Below are positions 3,145-10,901 of a stretch of DNA of 64,000 nt, in pieces (position 1 is the stretch's first letter; each line of letters starts with the position of its first letter). This DNA is from a virus (Duplodnaviria > Caudoviricetes). The stretch is taken from positions 96,001-160,000 of the IMG/VR virus record IMGVR_UViG_3300023174_003901; one strand, given 5' to 3'. The notes beneath the pieces are model-generated. The model did no database searches, was not told the DNA's origin, and worked only from the letters and a program-made list of their open reading frames with translations. Position numbers and translations under genes: made by a program.

Positions 3145-3205
3145 CAATGTCTCCTTGACATACATATACAACGCCATAGCCCTACAAAGGGTTTACATAG
3201 TCAAA

Positions 3206-3231
3206 AAAATAGGCTCCGAAGAGCCTATTTT
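3206..3231 (-). terminator. intrinsic terminator after tmRNA
   Basis: AAAATAGGCTC-TTCG-GAGCCTATTTT followed by a T run on minus strand. Confidence 0.85.
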
Positions 3232-3232
3232 G

Positions 3233-3565
3233 GTGGTTTCTGTTACGAGGTATTTCCTACCCTAGGCGGCTGTTAAGCGGCCAATGCGAACTGTTCGTCG
3301 TTTGCTTTTACGTTTTTTGTTGTCTTCGGCCAGGAACTCCCAACCCTACGGCTTCCACATTGCCGAGCGCCATTACCCCTACTCTTTGCCCTGTCGAAAC
3401 TATGCAGGCCCATCAAAAAAAGAAATGTAATATGATGACAAATATTAATAGTGTTATTACTACTACATCACATGTTCTACATTTGTCCATAACATATCCT
3501 CTTTTGGTGGACCTGGGGGGATTCGCACCCCCGTCCAGAACACTTTTCTTGATAACAGTTTACGC
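3233..3565 (-). ncRNA. ssrA: circularly permuted (two-piece) tmRNA
   Basis: Acceptor piece (T-arm ...CAGGTCC-A-CCA ending at 3505) precedes the coding piece (5' GGGCCTG at 3411); 7-bp acceptor stem with G3.U70; tag frame 3305-3273 = ANDEQFALAA*. Outer boundaries approximate. Confidence 0.93.
3413..3490 (-). CDS. 25-aa hydrophobic peptide inside the tmRNA intervening segment
   Basis: SD GAGGA then MDKCRTCDVVVITLLIFVIILHFFF*; stop ends 1 nt before tmRNA G1. Confidence 0.5.
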   Translation of the reverse strand: MDKCRTCDVVVITLLIFVIILHFFF

Positions 3566-3579
3566 TGTTTGAGTATTTA

Positions 3580-3873
3580 TTATTGATAAATCACTACGTC
3601 TTGGAAGTCTTCACCGTTGACACAGAGTGCGTATTCACGTTTGGCATTATAGCCTTTCTTTAGCACAACCATACCGTCTGCTGTGGTAAAGATTACTTTG
3701 GTACCAATGGTCATACGACCTAGACCCAATTCTCTACGCTCAAATTCAGGATCGTTCATGATCTTGCCACTGCCAAAATCAATACCGTTGTAAACAGCAG
3801 GCACTCGCTCGCCGTTGACCAATAGTACGTATTGGCTGTTTTTGACTAACTTGCTAGGGATAATCTTACGCAT
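3580..3873 (-). CDS. hypothetical protein
   Basis: 97-aa ORF with SD AAGGAA, below a sigma70 promoter. Confidence 0.7.
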   Translation of the reverse strand: MRKIIPSKLVKNSQYVLLVNGERVPAVYNGIDFGSGKIMNDPEFERRELGLGRMTIGTKVIFTTADGMVVLKKGYNAKREYALCVNGEDFQDVVIYQ

Positions 3874-3903
3874 GGCTGTTTCCTTTTGTGTTGCTAAGTC
3901 ATA

Positions 3904-3933
3904 ATTATAGCATATGAACCATTAAATGGTCAA
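3904..3933 (-). promoter_or_regulatory. sigma70-type promoter
   Basis: TTGACC-N18-TATAAT with extended TG. Confidence 0.7.
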
Positions 3934-3972
3934 ACGGAAAAAAGTAATACTCAAGTATTACATGCTACATTT

Positions 3973-4638
3973 TTAGTTGCCAGCCCAAGGGTCATTAAAT
4001 ACCGGAATCCATCCTCGATACATGGTGTTTGAAGCAATGTCTAAATCGTCTACATTGTGCTCGCTACCAACTAGTTCACGAGCATCCTCTAGAGATTTAT
4101 ACACTTGACGTACACCAGGCCCGTATTTTTGGTCAAAAAATTCTTGGTTATTTTGCGTTTGCCAAAAGTCCCGATTTGGATCATACTTGGGACCTAGTTT
4201 GGTTGTTTTGTTTAAGAAAGGAATATTGACAGGTTCGGGTGACAGTTTCTCGGTGGGAATCATAATCCAATCACTTTTGCCTACCCGCACAGTACGGACC
4301 GGACCAAATCTCGGAAAATGTCGTCGGATGGCTGGATCTTGTATTTTAGCAACGAAATTCACAAATTCAACTGGATTACTTGTGTCCTCTCTAGATCCGG
4401 GTGTGTTTTTTTTGTAAAATTTTATTACCTGATTATTTTTTTCCGCCACCACAGCATAACTACCTTTGCCTAGTGTGTTCCATCCACGCTCACGCAAGAA
4501 GTTAACTATTTCATCTTTTTCTCCGGGCCACACGCCTTGGACCCTACCTGCCGCTGGTGTCTGGACCAGGGAACTTGGGTTGGCTATCTCATTTAATACA
4601 TTAATATTAGACTCGGTGAAGATTTCTTTAAAACGCAT
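3973..4638 (-). CDS. late hypothetical protein with kinase-like motifs
   Basis: Start MRFKEIFTE 4 nt after TAAATA; LGKGSYAVV, VIK, degenerate DLxxxN, NDP. Confidence 0.55.
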   Translation of the reverse strand: MRFKEIFTESNINVLNEIANPSSLVQTPAAGRVQGVWPGEKDEIVNFLRERGWNTLGKGSYAVVAEKNNQVIKFYKKNTPGSREDTSNPVEFVNFVAKIQDPAIRRHFPRFGPVRTVRVGKSDWIMIPTEKLSPEPVNIPFLNKTTKLGPKYDPNRDFWQTQNNQEFFDQKYGPGVRQVYKSLEDARELVGSEHNVDDLDIASNTMYRGWIPVFNDPWAGN

Positions 4639-4645
4639 GTAGTAT

Positions 4646-4825
4646 TTATTTGGTGCTGAGATGACACGACGCCACAATCTGTTTGTTTTGGGCCCGGAAC
4701 TCTTCACGTTTCTGGACTCGGGCCTGCTCGCATTCTGCTTGGGTTTTGAACTTGGCTTGTTCGCCATACTCAGGCACTGGCCCTAGCACACTAAACGATA
4801 ATACCCAGATCAATGTCCGGCTCAT
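4646..4825 (-). CDS. small hypothetical protein (59 aa)
   Basis: Hand translation MSRTLIWVLSFSVLGPVPEYGEQAKFKTQAECEQAR...CHLSTK*; SD AGGAA. Confidence 0.65.
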   Translation of the reverse strand: MSRTLIWVLSFSVLGPVPEYGEQAKFKTQAECEQARVQKREEFRAQNKQIVASCHLSTK

Positions 4826-4850
4826 AGCAAATTCCTAATTGTGATATTTA

Positions 4851-4926
4851 TGGTGCCCCCTCCAGGTTACGCTCCTGGCTTTCAGGATTTTCAGTCCTGC
4901 ACTTTCACTAGATTAGTTTAAGGGGC
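4851..4926 (-). tRNA. tRNA-Phe(GAA)
   Basis: Cloverleaf, anticodon arm CAGGA-CTGAAAA-TCCTG, encoded CCA. Confidence 0.92.
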
Positions 4927-4929
4927 AAC

Positions 4930-5004
4930 TGGCGGGTCCTGCAGGAATCGAACCCACATCTCCAAGTTCGAAGCATGGCATTCTATCCATTGAACTAAAG
5001 ACCC
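4930..5004 (-). tRNA. tRNA-Arg(TCG)
   Basis: Loop CTTCGAA, GGTTCGA T-arm, CCA. Confidence 0.9.
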
Positions 5005-5012
5005 ATAAGTAA

Positions 5013-5717
5013 ATGATGACAGAATTCATATACACCTTAATCGCAACACACATCACCATAGCATGTGTTACACTGTACCTGCATCGCGGACAAGCACATC
5101 GATCAGTGACGTTTCATCCTGTGATCGAACACTTTATGCGAGCCTGGCTATGGCTCACAACAGGCATGGTCACCAAGCAATGGGTGGCCATACACCGCAA
5201 GCATCACAGATACAGTGATCGAGCCGGTGACCCACACTCACCACATGTGTATGGGATTGGGCAGGTATTTTTTAAAGGAGCGATGTTATATCATGCGGCA
5301 TCAAAAGATAAAGATATGGTTAGTACATATGGTCGTGGCACTCCTGCTGATTGGGTGGAGCGCAACATATACACTCCTCACAGTAGACTTGGCATTGGCC
5401 TGGTCCTTGTGTTCAACACCTTGATATTTGGTTGGTGGGGTATACTCGTCTGGGGCATTCAAATGATCTGGATTCCACTCTGGGCCGCGGGAGTTATCAA
5501 CGGCCTAGGTCATTGGGCAGGATATAGGAACGGAGAAACTCGTGATCTCAGTCGTAATCTTGTGCCTTGGGGCATTGTGGTTGGCGGTGAGGAACTACAC
5601 AACAATCATCACCTGGATCCGGCTAGTGCTCGCCTTAGTAGGCGTTGGTGGGAGTTTGACATAGGTTGGATGTATATCTGCATCTTTAAGAACCTAAGAT
5701 TGGCCACTGTCAAATAA
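5013..5717 (+). CDS. membrane fatty acid (acyl-CoA delta-9-type) desaturase
   Basis: His boxes HRGQAH, HRKHH, HNNHH and hydrophobic segments; only convincing plus-strand gene. Confidence 0.92.
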   Translation: MMTEFIYTLIATHITIACVTLYLHRGQAHRSVTFHPVIEHFMRAWLWLTTGMVTKQWVAIHRKHHRYSDRAGDPHSPHVYGIGQVFFKGAMLYHAASKDKDMVSTYGRGTPADWVERNIYTPHSRLGIGLVLVFNTLIFGWWGILVWGIQMIWIPLWAAGVINGLGHWAGYRNGETRDLSRNLVPWGIVVGGEELHNNHHLDPASARLSRRWWEFDIGWMYICIFKNLRLATVK

Positions 5718-5718
5718 T

Positions 5719-5792
5719 TGGTGCTCTCACCGGGTAACGATCCTGGGTTTCTACATTACCAATGTAGTGTAATGCCTTTATACTATGAGAGC
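5719..5792 (-). tRNA. tRNA-Thr(GGT)
   Basis: CTACA-TTGGTAA-TGTAG arm, CCA. Confidence 0.9.
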
Positions 5793-5800
5793 AATGAAAT

Positions 5801-5982
5801 AAAGAAAGCACTACCTGATGTTTAAGGGTGCGGAATACATGTCTGCACTCCCTTCCCTCCAGCAACATGACACGACTGTGACTGGCAGTCTACCGCGGCT
5901 TTCGCCCGTTCAGAGGCGCTGGATCTAATAAGGTCCCTGGTAGTTAGGCCCATAGTCAATGAGTTTCTAACACGCTTTCTTT
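5801..5982 (-). ncRNA. candidate structured RNA (~180 nt), family unknown
   Basis: Closing stem AAAGAAAGC/GCTTTCTTT, inner stems ACTACC/GGTAGT and TCCAGC/GCTGGA, GGC-GAAA-GCC hairpin. Confidence 0.55.
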
Positions 5983-6017
5983 ACTCAACTTGGAGCGGGA
6001 TATTATCCCGCATTGCT

Positions 6018-6107
6018 TGGCGGAACGTTAGGGAGTCGAACCCTATCAGCGGCTCGTCACCACCGCGGGATTAGCAATCCCGTGCCTTACCATCCGGCCC
6101 ACGTTCC
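6018..6107 (-). tRNA. tRNA-Ser(GCT)
   Basis: CGGGA-TTGCTAA-TCCCG, long variable arm, CCA. Confidence 0.92.
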
Positions 6108-6115
6108 TCTATGTA

Positions 6116-6144
6116 ATTATACTGCAATCAATCTCTGTTGTCAA
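6116..6144 (-). promoter_or_regulatory. sigma70 promoter within tRNA array
   Basis: TTGACA-N17-TATAAT. Confidence 0.8.
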
Positions 6145-6147
6145 TTC

Positions 6148-6223
6148 TGGAGCGGAAGGCGAGATTCGAACTCGTCTATTTCAGTTTGGAAGACTGACGT
6201 GTAACCCAAAACACTTCATCCGC
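6148..6223 (-). tRNA. tRNA-Gly(TCC)
   Basis: TCAGT-CTTCCAA-ACTGA, U73, CCA. Confidence 0.9.
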
Positions 6224-6230
6224 GGTTGTT

Positions 6231-6707
6231 CTATGCTGCCTTGCTCAGTACCCAGTCAAGTCTGTCTGCGGCATAACTTGCGGCAAACGCTCGAGGTTTG
6301 ACCATGGGGATCACATTGCAAGTGCCTTTGATGTAGCCAATGGCTTGATTGACCACTATACTAGACTTGTGCATTTGATCAGGGTTAATGTCAAGGTGAA
6401 CTTCTACTAGTCGATCTTCCAGCACATCTGCCAGGCGCTGAAACAATTCACTTACCTTGTACACTTCGTTCATGAGTCTCATGCTGGGTCTATCGCTACG
6501 TTGATCCCAGTCTTGTTCTCTCACAACTTCTCCAAAGATTTTGCAACCATGGCAACTGTCAATGTGTACCACAACGGCCAGAGCATAGTCAGCGTACCAA
6601 CGTCCATTGACTTTGACACGTTCACTATCACAGCCGAGGTAAACAGCAGTTTCTGGACTTTGTGCATCAATATAGGCTTTGACTTGGTCTAGATCAAGTT
6701 TTTTCAT
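6231..6707 (-). CDS. RNase H-like YkuK (DUF458) family protein
   Basis: YLGCDSE, HIDSCHG, EVHLDIN acidic RNase H-fold motifs. Confidence 0.75.
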   Translation of the reverse strand: MKKLDLDQVKAYIDAQSPETAVYLGCDSERVKVNGRWYADYALAVVVHIDSCHGCKIFGEVVREQDWDQRSDRPSMRLMNEVYKVSELFQRLADVLEDRLVEVHLDINPDQMHKSSIVVNQAIGYIKGTCNVIPMVKPRAFAASYAADRLDWVLSKAA

Positions 6708-6731
6708 ATTTGCTTTCTTTTATTTATAGAG

Positions 6732-6806
6732 TGGTCCGGCTAGCAGGAATCGAACCCACATTCATCGGGTAGAAGCCGACGGTATTATCCATTATACTAT
6801 AGCCAG
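6732..6806 (-). tRNA. tRNA-Arg(TCT)
   Basis: GTCGG-CTTCTAC-CCGAT, CCA. Confidence 0.9.
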
Positions 6807-6972
6807 AATAAATAGGATTATGAGATTTGACAACGAACACGGCATTGAAGCATTGTACCAAGTGGCTGCCGAGGGGGTGTATCAAGAACACTGGTTCTCT
6901 ACTGTACGCAGAGACTTTGTGATTGATCCTCAGTTGATAAATCCCCTACGTGAATTTTGTTTAGACACTACA

Positions 6973-7056
6973 TGGTGCAAGCACCCGGAGTCGAACCGGG
7001 ATGCCATAAGCGGTGAATTTTAAGTCCACTGGGTCTGCCGATTCCCCCATGCTTGC
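6973..7056 (-). tRNA. tRNA-Leu(TAA)
   Basis: GTGGA-CTTAAAA-TTCAC, variable arm, CCA. Confidence 0.92.
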
Positions 7057-7059
7057 AAT

Positions 7060-7135
7060 TGGTCTCCGATGAGAGATTTGAACTCCCGCTTCATGGTCCC
7101 AAACCACGGGTACTGCCAGGCTATACTAATCGGAG
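7060..7135 (-). tRNA. tRNA-Pro(TGG)
   Basis: CGTGG-TTTGGGA-CCATG, CCA. Confidence 0.9.
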
Positions 7136-7374
7136 TTGATTCTTTGCTTGATCCACATGCCAAACAACGTGCCACAGTAGGCACCTAGCAGGGCTGGAAT
7201 CAAGGCCCAATGATCTGCTGTGTAGTTGATCACCGCCACACTGGCAGTAAAGGTCACTGCTACTGACCACCATGCGGCCATCATTGGGCGATTGTCTTGT
7301 ATTGATCTCACAAAGTATACGTAGATCAAGTCAGTGGCAAATACTGCAAAAAAAGTCACAACATAATCTAGCAT
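7126..7374 (-). CDS. small membrane protein
   Basis: 82 aa, about three hydrophobic segments; last 10 nt overlap the tRNA-Pro 5' end. Confidence 0.7.
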   Translation of the reverse strand: MLDYVVTFFAVFATDLIYVYFVRSIQDNRPMMAAWWSVAVTFTASVAVINYTADHWALIPALLGAYCGTLFGMWIKQRINSD

Positions 7375-7388
7375 ACAAACTTTCTAGA

Positions 7389-7462
7389 TGGTGCCCCTAG
7401 AGAGAATCGAACTCCCGTCCTCGGATTACAAAACCGATGTTCTGCCATTTAACTATAGGGGC
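7389..7462 (-). tRNA. tRNA-Thr(TGT)
   Basis: Loop TTTGTAA, T-arm GGAGTTCGATTCT, CCA. Confidence 0.9.
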
Positions 7463-7466
7463 TGAT

Positions 7467-7540
7467 TGGATGCGGGGGACAGATTCGAACTGCCGATGCA
7501 CCTGGCTTATGAGACCGGTGTGGTGACCTCCCTCCCCGCG
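7467..7540 (-). tRNA. tRNA-Met(CAT), initiator-like but atypical
   Basis: CGCGGGG acceptor with C1.A72 mismatch, loop CTCATAA; lacks three consecutive GC anticodon-stem pairs; U discriminator. Confidence 0.8.
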
Positions 7541-7544
7541 GTAA

Positions 7545-7697
7545 TTAACTTGGAATAATATGTGGAATATACGGAACTGCTCTTGGACCACCGTATTGTT
7601 GTTCAAAAAGTTTTTTAGCCTCTTGCGGTGTTGCCGCATAGATACGCTTCTTTTCTTCACCTTGTGGTGTTCTCACAGTTGTTTCATACATTGGCAT
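7545..7697 (-). CDS. small hypothetical protein (50 aa)
   Basis: SD AGGAG then MPMYETTVRTPQGEEKKRIYAATPQEAKKLFEQQYGGPRAVPYIPHIIPS*. Confidence 0.75.
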   Translation of the reverse strand: MPMYETTVRTPQGEEKKRIYAATPQEAKKLFEQQYGGPRAVPYIPHIIPS

Positions 7698-7717
7698 ATA
7701 ATTCTCCTAATATAATG

Positions 7718-7937
7718 CTCTGCGTCCCTCGGCGGTAATTATATCGCATCAGAAATTTCGTCAAGTTGCCCCAACTAGTCTATTCATCACGCACGACCTC
7801 CACCCGCTTCCCGACAGGGACCGTTCTCGTATTGCTAACGCCGGTTGAGGCTAGACCGCAGTATTGCTACTGTGAAGATTCAACTCTTCAGAACCGCCCG
7901 TGTGTGTCATCACACTTCTCATCCTCCGGGACCAGAG
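7718..7937 (-). ncRNA. candidate structured RNA (~220 nt), family unknown
   Basis: Closing CTCTG-GTCCC-GG / CC-GA-GGGAC-G-CAGAG; several GCAA-capped hairpins; GC-rich; no credible ORF. Confidence 0.6.
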
Positions 7938-7959
7938 TATCCAGTGACGCTGGAACGTT

Positions 7960-8037
7960 TGGAGCACTGGGCTGGATTTGAACCAGCGACTTTACGGATT
8001 TGCAATCCGTTGCATTGGACCTCTCTGCCACCAGTGC
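7960..8037 (-). tRNA. tRNA-Cys(GCA)
   Basis: ACGGA-TTGCAAA-TCCGT, U73, CCA. Confidence 0.92.
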
Positions 8038-8056
8038 GTTGTTTCTATTTACATGT

Positions 8057-8085
8057 ATTATACACAATTATCTATTGTGTGTCAA
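8057..8085 (-). promoter_or_regulatory. sigma70 promoter within tRNA array
   Basis: TTGACA-N17-TATAAT; spacer holds inverted repeat ACACAAT/ATTGTGT. Confidence 0.8.
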
Positions 8086-8159
8086 TGGTACCTCGTGACA
8101 GAATCGAACTGCCGTAACCGCCGTGTAAAGACGGAGTTCTACCATTAAACTAACGAGGC
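8086..8159 (-). tRNA. tRNA-Val(TAC)
   Basis: CCGTC-TTTACAC-GGCGG, CCA. Confidence 0.92.
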
Positions 8160-8162
8160 AAG

Positions 8163-8250
8163 TGGTGGAGGTAGATGGATTTGAACCACCGAGGCCCCGT
8201 AGGGCGCAGGATTTACAGTCCCGTGCAATCGACCGCTATGCGATACCTCC
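8163..8250 (-). tRNA. tRNA-Tyr(GTA)
   Basis: CGGGA-CTGTAAA-TCCTG, long variable arm, CCA. Confidence 0.92.
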
Positions 8251-8258
8251 GAATTTTT

Positions 8259-8333
8259 TGGTGGACCGTCCTGGGTTCGAACCGGGGACTGAGGCTTGCA
8301 AAGCCACTGTGTTCCCAACTATACCAACAGCCC
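8259..8333 (-). tRNA. tRNA-Ala(TGC)
   Basis: Loop TTTGCAA, G3.U70, CCA. Confidence 0.92.
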
Positions 8334-8340
8334 AAATTTT

Positions 8341-8414
8341 TGGCGACTCGTGATGGAATCGAACCACCGCTAGAAGTTTTGGAGACTTCCGCACTGCCAC
8401 TATACTAACGAGCC
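8341..8414 (-). tRNA. tRNA-Trp(CCA)
   Basis: GAAGT-CTCCAAA-ACTTC, CCA. Confidence 0.92.
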
Positions 8415-8420
8415 ATATCT

Positions 8421-8498
8421 TGGTGCCCTAGGAGAGACTCGAACTCTCAAAACCTGGTTTCTAAGACCAGTACGTATACCAAATTCCGTCACCAGGGC
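8421..8498 (-). tRNA. tRNA-Leu(TAG), short variable region
   Basis: CTGGT-CTTAGAA-ACCAG; only GTTTT between anticodon and T arms. Confidence 0.85.
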
Positions 8499-8508
8499 AA
8501 AACTATCT

Positions 8509-8583
8509 TGGTGGATGAGAGTAGAGTCGAACTACCACTTGACTCCGTATGAAGGAGGCGCACTACCATTATGCTACTCATCC
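8509..8583 (-). tRNA. tRNA-CAT (elongator Met or Ile2)
   Basis: CTCC-TTCATAC-GGAG arm, GGATGAG/CTCATCC acceptor, CCA. Confidence 0.85.
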
Positions 8584-8587
8584 AGTT

Positions 8588-8664
8588 TGGGGTGCCTGAT
8601 GGGATTCGAACCCACGCATATCGGAATCACAACCCGAGGTCTTAACCACTTGACGACAAGCACC
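8588..8664 (-). tRNA. tRNA-His(GTG)
   Basis: Loop TTGTGAT, encoded G-1 opposite C73, CCA. Confidence 0.92.
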
Positions 8665-8765
8665 ATATAGAAACACACTGCTGATATCAGGCTAACGTTA
8701 TGACATATTGGGTTTACTGCCGTATTCCCAGGCTACTCATAAACTCGCCACAATGTGTTTTTATA
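8665..8765 (-). ncRNA. inter-tRNA RNA with shared AAACACA/TGTGTTT closing stem (A)
   Basis: TATAAAAACACATTG ... CAGTGTGTTTCTATAT arms; fills the His-Lys spacer exactly. Confidence 0.55.
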
Positions 8766-8955
8766 TGGTAGGACCGCCGAGATTCGAACTCGGGATTGGC
8801 AGATTAAAAGTCTGCTGTGATACCGCTTCACCACGATCCCTTACTTTGCATGATCGACGAACTGCTTTGTTTGTCTTTCGATGGCTACCCGCTTTTCTTT
8901 TCAATGCCAATGCAACGAAGGAGTTACGTTGCTTGACGGTCATCTTGCGTTTCAT
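8761..8955 (-). CDS. small basic protein whose frame runs through tRNA-Lys
   Basis: SD AAGGAG, MKRKMTVKQRNSFVALALKRKAGSHRKTNKAVRR; no stop before the tRNA. Confidence 0.5.
   Translation of the reverse strand: MKRKMTVKQRNSFVALALKRKAGSHRKTNKAVRRSCKVRDRGEAVSQQTFNLPIPSSNLGGPTI
8766..8840 (-). tRNA. tRNA-Lys(TTT)
   Basis: GCAGA-CTTTTAA-TCTGC, CCA. Confidence 0.92.
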
Positions 8956-8973
8956 CGCATTCTCCTTAAAAAT

Positions 8974-9047
8974 TGGTACCCCCGGGAGGTAACGCTCCTC
9001 CGATTGCCGCTTATCAAGCGGCTGTTATACTTTTTAACTAAAGGGGC
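8974..9047 (-). tRNA. tRNA-Ile(GAT)
   Basis: GCCGC-TTGATAA-GCGGC; non-canonical D and T loops; CCA. Confidence 0.85.
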
Positions 9048-9049
9048 GT

Positions 9050-9124
9050 TGGTGCCTTTGTATGGAATTGAACCACAATCGCCGGCTTCGTAGACCAGTG
9101 TATTATCCATTATACTACAAAGGC
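9050..9124 (-). tRNA. tRNA-Arg(ACG)
   Basis: CTGGT-CTACGAA-GCCGG, CCA. Confidence 0.92.
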
Positions 9125-9128
9125 AAAT

Positions 9129-9204
9129 TGGCTCCCCAGCGTGGGATCGAACCACGGACACCTTGATTAACAGTCAAGTGCAACTACCGCTGTGCTACTG
9201 GGGA
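9129..9204 (-). tRNA. tRNA-Asn(GTT)
   Basis: CTTGA-CTGTTAA-TCAAG, CCA. Confidence 0.92.
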
Positions 9205-9215
9205 ATAAAAAGGGA

Positions 9216-9276
9216 GAAGCCACGGTTGCAGGATCTAGTGCCTTTTGCAAGGGAAGTATCCAGGCGATGTGGCTTC
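9216..9276 (-). ncRNA. short inter-tRNA structured element
   Basis: Perfect 8-bp closing stem GAAGCCAC/GTGGCTTC between tRNA-Asp and tRNA-Asn. Confidence 0.4.
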
Positions 9277-9285
9277 AAAAAAACT

Positions 9286-9360
9286 TGGCGGTCCCAAGGG
9301 GTAACGATCCCCTTCTTCGAGCGTGACAGGCTCGTGTGCGTCCATGAACACTTTGAGACC
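9286..9360 (-). tRNA. tRNA-Asp(GTC)
   Basis: CGAGC-CTGTCAC-GCTCG, G73, CCA. Confidence 0.92.
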
Positions 9361-9361
9361 A

Positions 9362-9518
9362 AGATATTATAGTCAAGCACCGAGAATGCCAATTTAGGAG
9401 TCCGGTGCTTCCGTTCCAAAGCCGATGCAGTTATATCAGGATCAGTCGCCGGCCGCTGTGACCCGAATAGTGTTGGCGTCCCAACACGATACCTTATCGA
9501 TGCTTGACTATAACATCT
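9362..9518 (-). ncRNA. inter-tRNA multi-hairpin RNA (157 nt)
   Basis: 19-nt arms AGATGTTATAGTCAAGCAT / GTGCTTGACTATAATATCT; internal hairpins GTGTTGG/CCAACAC and CGATA/TATCG. Confidence 0.55.
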
Positions 9519-9521
9519 AGC

Positions 9522-9591
9522 ATATAAAAACACACTGGACGAGGCGACCCTGTGGCCACAAGTTCCTGCTTATCTCCAGTGTGTTTACATA
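9522..9591 (-). ncRNA. inter-tRNA RNA with shared closing stem (B)
   Basis: TATGTAAACACACTGGA ... TCCAGTGTGTTTTTATAT on minus strand. Confidence 0.55.
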
Positions 9592-9667
9592 TGGTAGTGG
9601 GTACCGGATTCGAACCGGTGTGAATGCCGTGAAAGGGCACTATCCTAGGCCTCTAGATGAACCCACC
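9592..9667 (-). tRNA. tRNA-Glu(TTC)
   Basis: GTGCC-CTTTCAC-GGCAT, CCA. Confidence 0.92.
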
Positions 9668-9891
9668 ATATGAAAAAACATTTGGGAACCATTGTGGATC
9701 TCTTTCTGCTTGGCTTGCGAGGCCAAGTCACCACGGTCATTACTGCCAGACGATCCGCCGCTTTTCTGGATCTACTTGTTACAGTAGAGAGCCGGCTTCA
9801 TGACTGGTAGTAAGTGGGTACCCGCCGGTACCAATTGGACACTTCTACCAATGCCTCTAACGGGTCTGGTAACCCTAATGTGTTCTCATAT
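9668..9891 (-). ncRNA. inter-tRNA RNA with shared closing stem (C, ~224 nt)
   Basis: ATATGAGAACACATTAGG ... CCAAATGTTTTTTCATAT; inner hairpins GGTAC/GTACC, TCTACT/AGTAGA, CTTGGC/GCCAAG. Confidence 0.55.
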
Positions 9892-9976
9892 AGTGCCTGC
9901 GAACAGGACTACATATACGTAATTTTTAAAGATCTCTACAACTGTCTCGATCGACTTTGTTGCTTTGTTAAGTTCT

Positions 9977-10005
9977 ATTGTAGCATCAACCGATTTATTG
10001 GTCAA
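9977..10005 (-). promoter_or_regulatory. sigma70 promoter within tRNA array
   Basis: TTGACC-N17-TACAAT with extended TG. Confidence 0.7.
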
Positions 10006-10037
10006 TGCTGAGTGTTGCGTTTTCACAACAATTGTTT

Positions 10038-10111
10038 TGGCACGGGAACTAGGGCTCGAACCTAGAATGACAGAGTCAAAGTCTGTAGTGTTACCATTAC
10101 ACTATTCCCGA
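10038..10111 (-). tRNA. tRNA-Gln(TTG)
   Basis: ACAGA-CTTTGAC-TCTGT, G73, CCA. Confidence 0.92.
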
Positions 10112-10117
10112 ACAATC

Positions 10118-10209
10118 CGGCGGAAGACGGAGGAGTCGAACCCCATCCGATTTCTCGGAACCTGGTTTTCAAGGCCAGTCGCGGTACCAATACCACTGCA
10201 TCATCTTCC
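10118..10209 (-). tRNA. tRNA-Ser(TGA), 3' end encoded as CCG
   Basis: Loop CTTGAAA, long variable arm; ends TCTTCC-G-CCG. Confidence 0.88.
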
Positions 10210-10213
10210 AACA

Positions 10214-10297
10214 TGGTACCCTTGGTGAGATTCGAACTCACATATTATACTCCTCTGTTTGAGAGAGGCGACTTTACCAAAATTTGTCCACAAGGGT
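10214..10297 (-). tRNA. tRNA-Leu(CAA)
   Basis: CCTCT-CTCAAAC-AGAGG, CCA. Confidence 0.9.
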
Positions 10298-10321
10298 CTA
10301 ACACACTGTTGCCAATGTGTG

Positions 10322-10380
10322 TATCGAAACACTCTACATGGATGAACCCACTTGCCTCGCGGCCTGAGAATGCTTCGATA
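10322..10380 (-). ncRNA. small three-way-junction element (D)
   Basis: TATCGAAGCATTCT/AGAGTGTTTCGATA stem enclosing GCC-GCGA-GGC and TGG/CCA hairpins. Confidence 0.45.
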
Positions 10381-10488
10381 CGCTGTAATTTTTCACACTA
10401 GAAGAAGTGCTTCATCCTACAGGCCGCCCATTTGCCGGATGTTTTAAGTGCCCAGCAGGGTCTCGTTCCCTACACACACTTTGCGATG

Positions 10489-10644
10489 TTAACGGTTCTC
10501 TTGGAGAACCTCTCGCTTGCTTCGAGCATTGTCATATGCTTGAGCACGTTCTAACTTCTCTGCAATTATCTTGCGAAGATCTTGTTGAGTTAGGGTGTGC
10601 TGTCGCGTAAACTCTGCTTGCCTTTTTAATTTTGTATCTGTCAT
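10489..10644 (-). CDS. small hypothetical protein (51 aa), first gene after the attenuator
   Basis: SD AAGGAA then MTDTKLKRQAEFTRQHTLTQQDLRKIIAEKLERAQAYDNARSKREVLQENR*. Confidence 0.7.
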   Translation of the reverse strand: MTDTKLKRQAEFTRQHTLTQQDLRKIIAEKLERAQAYDNARSKREVLQENR

Positions 10645-10661
10645 TTTCCTTGTTCCAAAAA

Positions 10662-10694
10662 CAAAAAACCCTGGAGTTTTTAGTTCCAGGGTCC
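10662..10694 (-). terminator. intrinsic terminator of the putative attenuator
   Basis: ACCCTGGA-ACTAAAAAC-TCCAGGGT then TTTTTG. Confidence 0.8.
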
Positions 10695-10719
10695 TTTGAA
10701 GTCTGAGTATGCGGTTGAA

Positions 10720-10863
10720 CTATACTCTGTCTCCTTGGACCCTGATTCTATCTAATGTGCGACCATTATTCATGCTCTCAATCGCAAACCACAAGGCGGG
10801 GCAGGTGCCCAGACTTAGCGTCGGCTGATAGAGTGATATGGAATAATGTGCGGAATGTTTCAT
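10720..10863 (-). CDS. putative attenuator leader peptide (47 aa)
   Basis: MKHSAHYSISLYQPTLSLGTCPALWFAIESMNNGRTLDRIRVQGDRV*; 3' end holds CAGGGTCC, complementary to terminator arm GGACCCTG. Confidence 0.7.
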   Translation of the reverse strand: MKHSAHYSISLYQPTLSLGTCPALWFAIESMNNGRTLDRIRVQGDRV

Positions 10864-10872
10864 CTTGTGCTT

Positions 10873-10901
10873 ATTGTATAGGTTTATTTATACCTTGTCA
10901 A
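10873..10901 (-). promoter_or_regulatory. sigma70 promoter with nested TATAAATA at the head of the tRNA array
   Basis: TTGACA-N17-TACAAT; TATAAATA at 10885-10892. Confidence 0.8.

Follow-up and report, generated by a model that had tools for sequence, protein, structure and literature searches.

Hairpins anchored on tRNA ends in the tRNA array of a giant freshwater phage and their possible role as processing stalks

The largest sets of viral tRNA genes known to us are those of giant phages and, to our knowledge, the punctuation and the maturation of their multi-kilobase tRNA precursors are unstudied. Both questions are raised by a stretch of 64,000 nucleotides (nt), hereafter the window, which covers positions 96,001 to 160,000 of the IMG/VR record IMGVR_UViG_3300023174_003901, a 200-kb viral record of a giant freshwater (lake) phage with an estimated completeness of 58%. 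The window carries on its minus strand, at 3182-10297, an array of 24-27 tRNA genes plus a permuted transfer-messenger RNA (tmRNA) gene (ARAGORN, Rfam), and hairpin elements lie between these genes. What are these hairpins for? A previous examination of the letters without any database search (the sequence-only reading) had reported five of them with a shared closing stem, and all five were present, on the minus strand (Table 1). All statements on RNA are given in the sense of this strand, which is that of the tRNAs.

In cassette A, the 5' arm (CCAUAUAAAAACACAUUG) takes in the CCA of tRNA-Lys(UUU), which forms the first three base pairs (bp) of the stem, and the last base of the 3' arm (CAGUGUGUUUCUAUAUGG) is the first base of tRNA-His. 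Two of the 18 bp of the stem are imperfect, bp 8 being an A.C mismatch and bp 16 a U.G wobble. The placement of cassettes A, B and C at tRNA ends was borne out, since A and B start on a CCA and C ends, with its 3' arm, on G1 of tRNA-Glu; the 5' arm of C is preceded by a small hairpin and not by a tRNA. The cores of the window elements had been described as unrelated to one another, and so they are. The stems do have elements in common, as the inner step 5'-CAU/GUG-3' with its U.G wobble recurs in those of the neighbouring cassette, the related hairpin and the mini hairpin, and within the 200-kb record long stems bearing the motif were found in the tRNA array only. Predicted folding energies were -39.1 kcal/mol for cassette A (z -4.8), -30.9 for cassette B (z -4.2) and -37.0 for positions 10298-10385 (z -6.7), and in each case none of 200 shuffled sequences folded as well. 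The related hairpin has two G.U pairs on the minus strand, where it folds at -37.0 kcal/mol vs. -21.8 on the other strand. The imperfections of the stems had been ascribed to G.U pairs of the minus strand, which is correct for B, C and the related hairpin and incorrect for A, which has one U.G and one A.C. Either strand of A thus shows one wobble and one mismatch, and it is the other elements and the family as a whole that support the argument from strand.

The same elements were recovered in related phages, in which loci are designated by L numbers. The stem of cassette A recurs with a related core in other contigs (core clusters 87 and 91), and a near-identical copy of the core of cassette B is found after tRNA-Lys in four other loci (cluster 48), B itself being replaced in L015 and absent in L012. 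The related hairpin is kept in L012, L013, L053 and L020, and the mini hairpin shows a compensatory change from G-C to C-G in L013 and L020. The core of the neighbouring cassette is highly conserved in L012 and L015 and is probably another conserved cargo RNA.

The family was collected with a neighbouring protein as the query, which gave 599 related places from which 80 loci were kept, many of them with the same stem and other cores. Searches with the arm sequence listed 145 matches, 139 of them with a partner arm. Among the matches listed, 136 of 137 lay on the tRNA strand and, in 97 of 133 cassettes shorter than 200 nt, the start coincided exactly with the CCA of the tRNA upstream, while 47 ended on the first 1-3 nt of the next one. 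A position-anchored search, in which 2,322 unique tRNA contexts were scored for a helix starting at C74, yielded a bimodal distribution with 2,136 contexts below 24 and 186 at 24 or more. The stems were AU-rich and 17-22 bp long. When the first three pairs were left out of helix selection, the CCA:UGG pairing was kept in 64-76% of the cases with no tRNA following and the scan-pattern hairpins excluded, and the discriminator base was paired in 76-79% (76% in the test excluding the scan pattern). The AAACACA lineage is the commonest stem type only; many stems of different sequence, above all after tRNA-Glu, run from (N73)CCA-U to A-UGG-(N). Because these unrelated stems share the CCA-anchored design, the hairpin family is an architecture more than one sequence. 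For the same reason, and given that the arm is conserved as a paired partner, we rejected a promoter inside the arm, where TATAAAAA resembles a T4 late promoter. Rho-independent terminators were likewise discarded, because the stems are AU-rich and no U-tract follows them, the 3' arm ending in UAUAUGG and then a tRNA or UA. In six loci (L081, L086, L119, L122, L124, and L130) a recurring non-tRNA element of about 70 nt was seen 3' of cassettes, between tandem copies; its loop is of the GGGAUUCC type, its terminal hairpin ends in ACCA, and from it comes the CCA on which the following cassette starts.

Substitutions in the stems distinguish the transcript from its complement. In 149 unique stems there were 264-277 G.U or U.G pairs vs. 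89 A.C or C.A, and 71-73 of the latter fell at bp 8; with bp 8 set aside, the wobble pairs stand against only 16 A.C mismatches. The tRNA sense gave the better score in 98 stems and the antisense in nine, and each of the variable stem positions occurred with three or four Watson-Crick pair types. The stems are real RNA hairpins under RNA-level selection in the tRNA sense, and the shared stem tied to tRNA ends that the sequence-only reading had proposed is strongly supported by the CCA and +1 anchoring, the strand-specific wobble and the compensatory changes.

On these grounds we consider, with a probability of about 0.5, that the stems may be processing stalks in the style of rRNA operons, set in a polycistronic tRNA precursor and cut most likely by the RNase III of the host. 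As transcription proceeds, the end of one tRNA, both its CCA tail and its 3' trailer, would base-pair with the 5' leader belonging to the next element, so that an AU-rich helix of about 20 bp forms below a variable top. An endonuclease of the host that is specific for double strands, most likely RNase III, would then cut this helix and thereby separate the neighbours, whose tRNA ends would be finished by RNase P and 3' trimming enzymes, or by RNase E right after the CCA. What is excised would be a by-product, except that a small number of conserved cargoes, cassette C among them, would be set free as stable RNAs, as 16S and 23S rRNA are from their stalks. RNase III needs about two helical turns. 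Continuous double-stranded RNA of about this length is found in the transcript, and the stems flank or separate stable RNAs in a polycistronic precursor. In Escherichia coli, hairpins directly after the CCA are removed endonucleolytically, and RNase P is blocked until their removal (PMC5291269). In this regard, the idea of a processing stem remains the best reading in view of the anchoring, the wobble and the compensatory changes, the cutting and its enzyme being what we infer from them, while the associated claim that several small RNAs are released would hold at most for cassette C and the neighbouring cassette, which have conserved cores, most tops being hypervariable and folding like random sequence.

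Several points weigh against this proposal. No RNase III gene was found in the phage record, nor in any of five related records (of which two are complete, at 350 kb), and the proposal therefore has to assume an enzyme of the host. Several features are not accounted for by RNase III alone, namely the A.C conserved at bp 8, the conserved CAU/GUG wobble step, the near-invariant sequence of the main lineage, and the strong preference for tRNA-Lys, Leu(UAG), Glu, and Gln described below. Most tRNA junctions in the same arrays have spacers of only 3-10 nt. In addition, the family-wide pairing percentages (95% for the stems) are partly circular, because the helices were picked by their pairing score; the non-circular support consists of the bimodal scores, the strand asymmetry and an alignment-based test on cassette C. 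The array encodes a candidate RNA-processing nuclease of its own, an RNase H-like protein of 158 amino acids that belongs to the uncharacterized family DUF458/YkuK (PF04308, E 4e-14) and lies at 6231-6707 on the minus strand, between tRNA-Gly and tRNA-Arg. Homologues were found in the arrays of 49 fetched loci, these loci being short fragments, and in four of five related records.

The hairpins are not distributed evenly among tRNAs. In the unbiased set, that is, the loci chosen without regard to the hairpin, a CCA-anchored helix followed tRNA-Lys(UUU) in seven of eight unique contexts and started a few bases later in the eighth; all nine tRNA-Lys(UUU) genes of the set were followed by a family hairpin. 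The proportions were 6/26 for Leu(UAG), 3/11 for Glu(UUC) and 1/20 for Leu(UAA), and there was no hairpin in about 475 other contexts (Fisher p 6e-11 for Lys). Over all loci, Lys, Glu, and Gln(UUG) accounted for 129 of the 186 hairpins, the bias for Gln(UUG) being seen only in this full, pattern-biased set. The tRNAs for Lys, Leu(UAG), Glu, and Gln have a wobble U and read A-ending codons. The bias may be functional or due to common descent. It could mean that the hairpin is a clamp on the 3' end, which pairs the discriminator and the CCA and holds these four tRNAs as inactive or protected precursors; it would then set their folding, the order of their processing or their supply, for instance in the face of an attack on these U34 tRNAs or of a high demand for A-ending codons, and cutting would be secondary. 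Besides the bias itself, the frequent pairing of the discriminator base and the delay that 3' hairpins impose on RNase P in E. coli (PMC5291269) are consistent with such a role, as are open reading frames (ORFs) that run into tRNA-Lys and suggest that this tRNA is a specially regulated module. However, family stems also occur away from tRNA 3' ends, in cassette C, the related hairpin, the mini hairpin and tandem cassettes, and the bias could be historical if tRNA and hairpin travelled as one module, so that we regard the clamp as unlikely.

Two kinds of ORF were seen at this tRNA. In the window, an ORF led by a Shine-Dalgarno sequence at 8761-8955 (minus strand) encodes a basic peptide and runs into tRNA-Lys(UUU) with no stop before it, its formal end being a UAA inside the 5' arm of cassette A; the ORF has a conserved KAGSHRKSNKALRR-type motif and is also present in L020, L113, L137, L176, L186, L187, L189, and L196. 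A cut by RNase P at the 5' end of tRNA-Lys would leave a message without a stop codon, and the phage also encodes a tmRNA. A possible likeness of the peptide to ArfA found no support from Pfam, NCBIfam or PDB. In many relatives (L012, L048, L068, L090, L100, L104, L114, L135, L169, L185, L193, L199, and others) the basic peptide is replaced by a mini-ORF of 10-19 codons, with 19 unique versions of the type M-x-S-D-K-S-D-K..., an AAGGAG ribosome-binding site, a start 23-32 nt (mostly 29) upstream of tRNA-Lys(UUU) and an end within the 5' part of this tRNA. With two Lys codons just before the tRNA-Lys gene, it could be a Lys-sensing leader.

The part of the hairpin above the stem was variable in the extreme. 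The 120 unique cassettes fell into 92 unrelated core clusters, and their size went from bare hairpins of 35-43 nt to more than 200 nt, with tops from a 9-nt loop to 190 nt. In folding, the cores did not surpass pieces taken at random from the same loci (mean z -0.39 vs. -0.37, p 0.82), which led us to reject the tops as folded RNAs. Guides were also discarded, since no match of a top was found outside cassettes in 2.5 Mb of related phage DNA. Decayed tRNAs were rejected as well, given that a T-loop-like motif was present in only 12 of the 120 tops (about 10% had a T-arm beside the 3' arm; relaxed ARAGORN calls numbered about 10), and the enrichment of motifs in the tops was weak and mostly due to T-arm remnants. 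A single core may be seen in different tRNA contexts, and that of cluster 8 had three different arm sets. Where 70-nt flanks were at least 90% identical between loci, core identity was either 100% (nine pairs) or 48-62% (nine pairs), with none between. Loci L153 and L161 share about 100% identity in the 150 nt of either flank and have wholly different tops, the boundary lying exactly at the stem. Homologous recombination via the shared arms of 17-20 nt explains this exchange, and no dedicated enzyme is needed. Since most tops are hypervariable, fold like random sequence and may be reduced to a loop of 9 nt, we take the stem and not the cargo to be the constant functional part.

The same exchange has to be considered under other explanations. 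The stem could be a constant stabilizing or protein-binding handle that displays active variable RNAs (regulators, decoys or guides) exchanged between phages, and the replacement of whole tops between near-identical genomes, the return of one top in different tRNA contexts, the few cargoes that are conserved structured RNAs, and the conserved A.C at bp 8 and U.G step would all agree with it. We nevertheless find it improbable, given that the tops behave as described above in folding, minimal size, motif content and lack of matches elsewhere and that stems of unrelated sequence serve equally, which disfavours a sequence-specific partner. The shared protein-binding handle of the sequence-only reading is weakened for this last reason, many unrelated stems having the same CCA-anchored architecture. 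A more specific version, in which the hairpin is the scaffold of a fast-turning, exchanged library of 40-70-nt tops that act as decoys, guides or regulators against hosts or rival phages and are released by tRNA-processing enzymes or by the DUF458/YkuK nuclease of the array, is in our opinion a long shot.

The exchange could also point to the DNA, with the inverted repeats serving as recombination joints or as the ends of mobile cassettes and the RNA hairpin as a side effect. Among relatives with 82-94% identity in the flanking protein, the arrays have undergone heavy rearrangement, cassettes are present in some relatives and missing in others, the swaps are sharply bounded at the stem, and one core has been found with three arm sets. 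However, the strand-specific excess of wobble pairs denotes selection on the transcript, the orientation to the tRNAs is fixed (136 to 1), the flanks are complementary (CCA/UGG) instead of direct target-site duplications, and the elements occur in tRNA arrays only. No recombinase was seen among the few array genes checked, no search aimed at recombinases having been made, and the swaps are simply explained as a by-product of homologous recombination between identical arms. A DNA-level element is thus very doubtful. In particular, a miniature inverted-repeat transposable element (MITE) or other transposable inverted repeat was rejected in the absence of a target-site duplication and in view of the strand count and the confinement to the array given above. 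Like attC sites, repetitive extragenic palindromic (REP) sequences, MITEs and Correia-type elements, the hairpins are imperfect inverted repeats in which the stem is conserved, the centre varies and exchange takes place in the manner of cassettes; they differ from them in their fixed orientation, their restriction to tRNA arrays and a wobble asymmetry that points to RNA selection. With respect to integron attC sites, the arm sequences do not fit, by eye, the R-box consensus (RYYYAAC / GTTRRRY), no integrase search having been made.

The case of an enclosed conserved RNA is given by cassette C. Homologues were found with nhmmer (23 matches at E ≤ 1e-3), and 16 were aligned. In this alignment 94.7% of the cells were paired vs. 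81.3% in shuffles, a value reached by none of 500, and vs. 32-52% in slid registers. The closing stem showed two-sided change in seven of 15 pairs, all six pairs of an internal hairpin covaried, and the long-range helices P2 and P3 covaried in 14 of the 16 homologues (CC+NNNN with NNNN+GG; CCGU/ACGG alternating with CCAG/CUGG). The blocks GGUUACC, UAGG and GUAAU were invariant and CAUGAAG was conserved in most. The cargo of cassette C is a new complex structured RNA of about 190 nt.

Bacterial rRNA operons have RNase III processing stalks and a boxB-boxA-boxC antitermination leader. Upstream of cassette C there is a leader with a sigma70-type promoter (TTGACC, 17 nt, TACAAT), the boxA-like sequence GAUCUUUAAAAA (UGUUCUUUAAAAA in relatives) and, between the latter and the stalk, the small hairpin CCUG-UUCG-CAGG, which covaries. 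The order of promoter, hairpin, boxA-like element, small covarying hairpin and stalk is kept upstream of most cassette C homologues, and the leaders of relatives add a GNRA hairpin. The boxA of rrn operons is UGCUCUUUA and that of nutL, with its spacer, is CGCUCUUAAAAAUUAA (PMC2724277). The leader thus suggests antitermination of the tRNA array of the rrn or nut type, and cassette C is comparable to what follows an rrn leader in standing after a promoter, a hairpin and a boxA-like element of the UGUUCUUUAAAAAUUA type (PMC2724277). By analogy, the unit of cassette C has the layout of an rRNA operon, with a putative antitermination leader, a stalk-enclosed stable RNA and a tRNA. The likeness extends to the leader/trailer helix around a stable RNA in a polycistronic transcript that also holds tRNAs. 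It must be noted that the RNA enclosed in the phage is of 9-250 nt and mostly unconserved, that there are many copies per array, and that the helix joins the CCA of a tRNA to the leader of the one after it, its cleavage being presumed, in all of which the rRNA stalks differ.

Other systems share some of these traits. In E. coli proK, proL, and proM, RNase E takes off a hairpin that directly follows the CCA, and RNase P and PNPase can stand in for it; one cut gives the mature 3' end, and RNase P is hindered until the hairpin is gone (PMC5291269). As in the phage, the hairpin begins in an AU-rich stretch immediately 3' of the encoded CCA. However, the proK, proL, and proM hairpins act as Rho-independent terminators, closing the transcript with a U-tract, while those of the phage have no U-tract, lie within the array, pair the CCA itself and abut the next tRNA.

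The early transcripts of T7 have RNase III hairpins (R1.1 and its sister sites) between messenger RNAs, with fixed tops and internal loops. These are likewise related phage hairpins punctuating a polycistronic transcript, and they differ in not being tied to tRNA ends. By comparison with the T7 sites, an imperfection of the helix such as the A.C of bp 8 might steer or restrict its cutting.

Finally, small RNAs of unknown role are found among the tRNA genes of T4 (rnaC and rnaD, or species 1 and 2) and T5 (RNA I, III, IV, 1, 2, 2H, 3, and X). The sequence-only reading had drawn the parallel with T4, and it applies to the presence of small non-tRNA RNAs among phage tRNAs and no further, because the tRNA regions of T4 and T5 had no CCA-anchored helix above background (best scores 15 and 21). 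Among non-tRNA RNAs located between phage tRNAs, those of T4 and T5 are nonetheless the closest cases on record. A T-arm is present in T4 rnaC and in about 10% of the tops of the present family. The stable RNAs of these two phages have no shared closing stem, T4 rnaC folding like a tRNA without a long one, and no sequence similarity to them beyond tRNAs was detected in the phage collection. Y RNA or YrlA bound by Ro60 (Rsr) was also rejected, given that the record had no TROVE protein (PF05731), that neither 8500-10900 nor four related loci gave a match to YrlA or Y_RNA, and that the T-arm is limited to about 10% of the tops. The hairpin family is best filed among the processing stalks of stable RNAs.

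With respect to its spread, the family is common in the tRNA gene arrays of giant freshwater phages, and the viral contigs with the exact 16-base 3' arm number at least 120. The same 16 bases gave 92 stretches in 596 Gb of bacterial genomes vs. about 280 expected by chance (according to our own arithmetic), a count that is not above chance and for which a host origin of the motif was rejected. The only real cassettes among bacterial genomes were those of six small contigs of freshwater metagenome-assembled genomes, which are probably phage DNA, and no bona fide bacterial chromosome with the hairpin family was found in the 596 Gb. A comparison with Rfam had been proposed by the sequence-only reading, and no family of Rfam 15 fits the hairpins: at the gathering threshold the window gave only tRNA and tmRNA, and at E ≤ 10 there was nothing credible in 8500-10900 or in four related loci. 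A description of CCA-anchored phage hairpins was not found in the literature searched.

Table 1. Hairpin elements of the window and adjoining features (positions in the window; for parts on the minus strand the 5' end is given first).
Feature	Position	Strand	Description
Cassette A	8663..8768	-	5' arm 8768..8751, core 8750..8681, 3' arm 8680..8663
tRNA-Lys(UUU)	8766..8840	-	upstream of cassette A
Neighbouring cassette	9362..9518	-	157 nt; different closing stem of 25 bp; ends 1 nt before tRNA-Asp
Cassette B	9520..9594	-	5' arm from the CCA of tRNA-Glu(UUC); core of about 35 nt; next cassette after the 3' arm
tRNA-Glu(UUC)	9592..9667	-	between cassette C (3' arm) and cassette B (5' arm)
Cassette C	9666..9894	-	family-type closing stem around a conserved structured RNA of about 190 nt
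Leader of the cassette C transcription unit	9896..10005	-	promoter (-35 10005..10000, -10 9982..9977), boxA-like element (9934..9923), small hairpin (9907..9896)
Mini hairpin	10298..10322	-	ACACAUUG-GCAA-CAGUGUGU; inner family motif alone, just before tRNA-Leu(CAA)
Related hairpin	10321..10381	-	stem GUAUCGAAGCAUUCU / AGAGUGUUUCGAUAC; two wobble pairs, in the tRNA sense only

Some other traits of the array were observed. Near-consensus sigma70 promoters (TTGACA, 17 nt, TATAAT) are located in short spacers within it, at 8038-8085 and 6108-6147 (minus strand), and the array is therefore transcribed as several units. Two tRNA genes, at 4854-4926 and 8977-9047 (minus strand), were found by Rfam only (44.5 and 42.2 bits), with no ARAGORN call. 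There was no ARAGORN call either for a tRNA-like gene of 91 nt with a long extra arm at 10119-10209 (minus strand), which matched the Rfam tRNA-Sec model with 38 bits, under the cut-off of 47; by eye its anticodon loop is CUUGAAA, and its 3' end is GCC with no CCA. This tRNA-like element is found 3' of Gln-cassette junctions in many relatives.

In attention to the above, the hairpin family is a concrete, testable candidate for a processing signal in the tRNA precursors of giant phages, absent from Rfam and from the literature searched yet present in at least 120 viral contigs. The tRNA arrays that contain it swap RNA segments between genomes with boundaries sharp to the base pair and, if the scaffold library were true, the array would be an RNA-level cassette system. 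Should the tRNA bias be functional, it would bear on the supply by phages of the tRNAs that are targeted by host anticodon nucleases. By their boxA-like leader and stalk-enclosed stable RNA, these arrays appear to follow the logic of rRNA operons.

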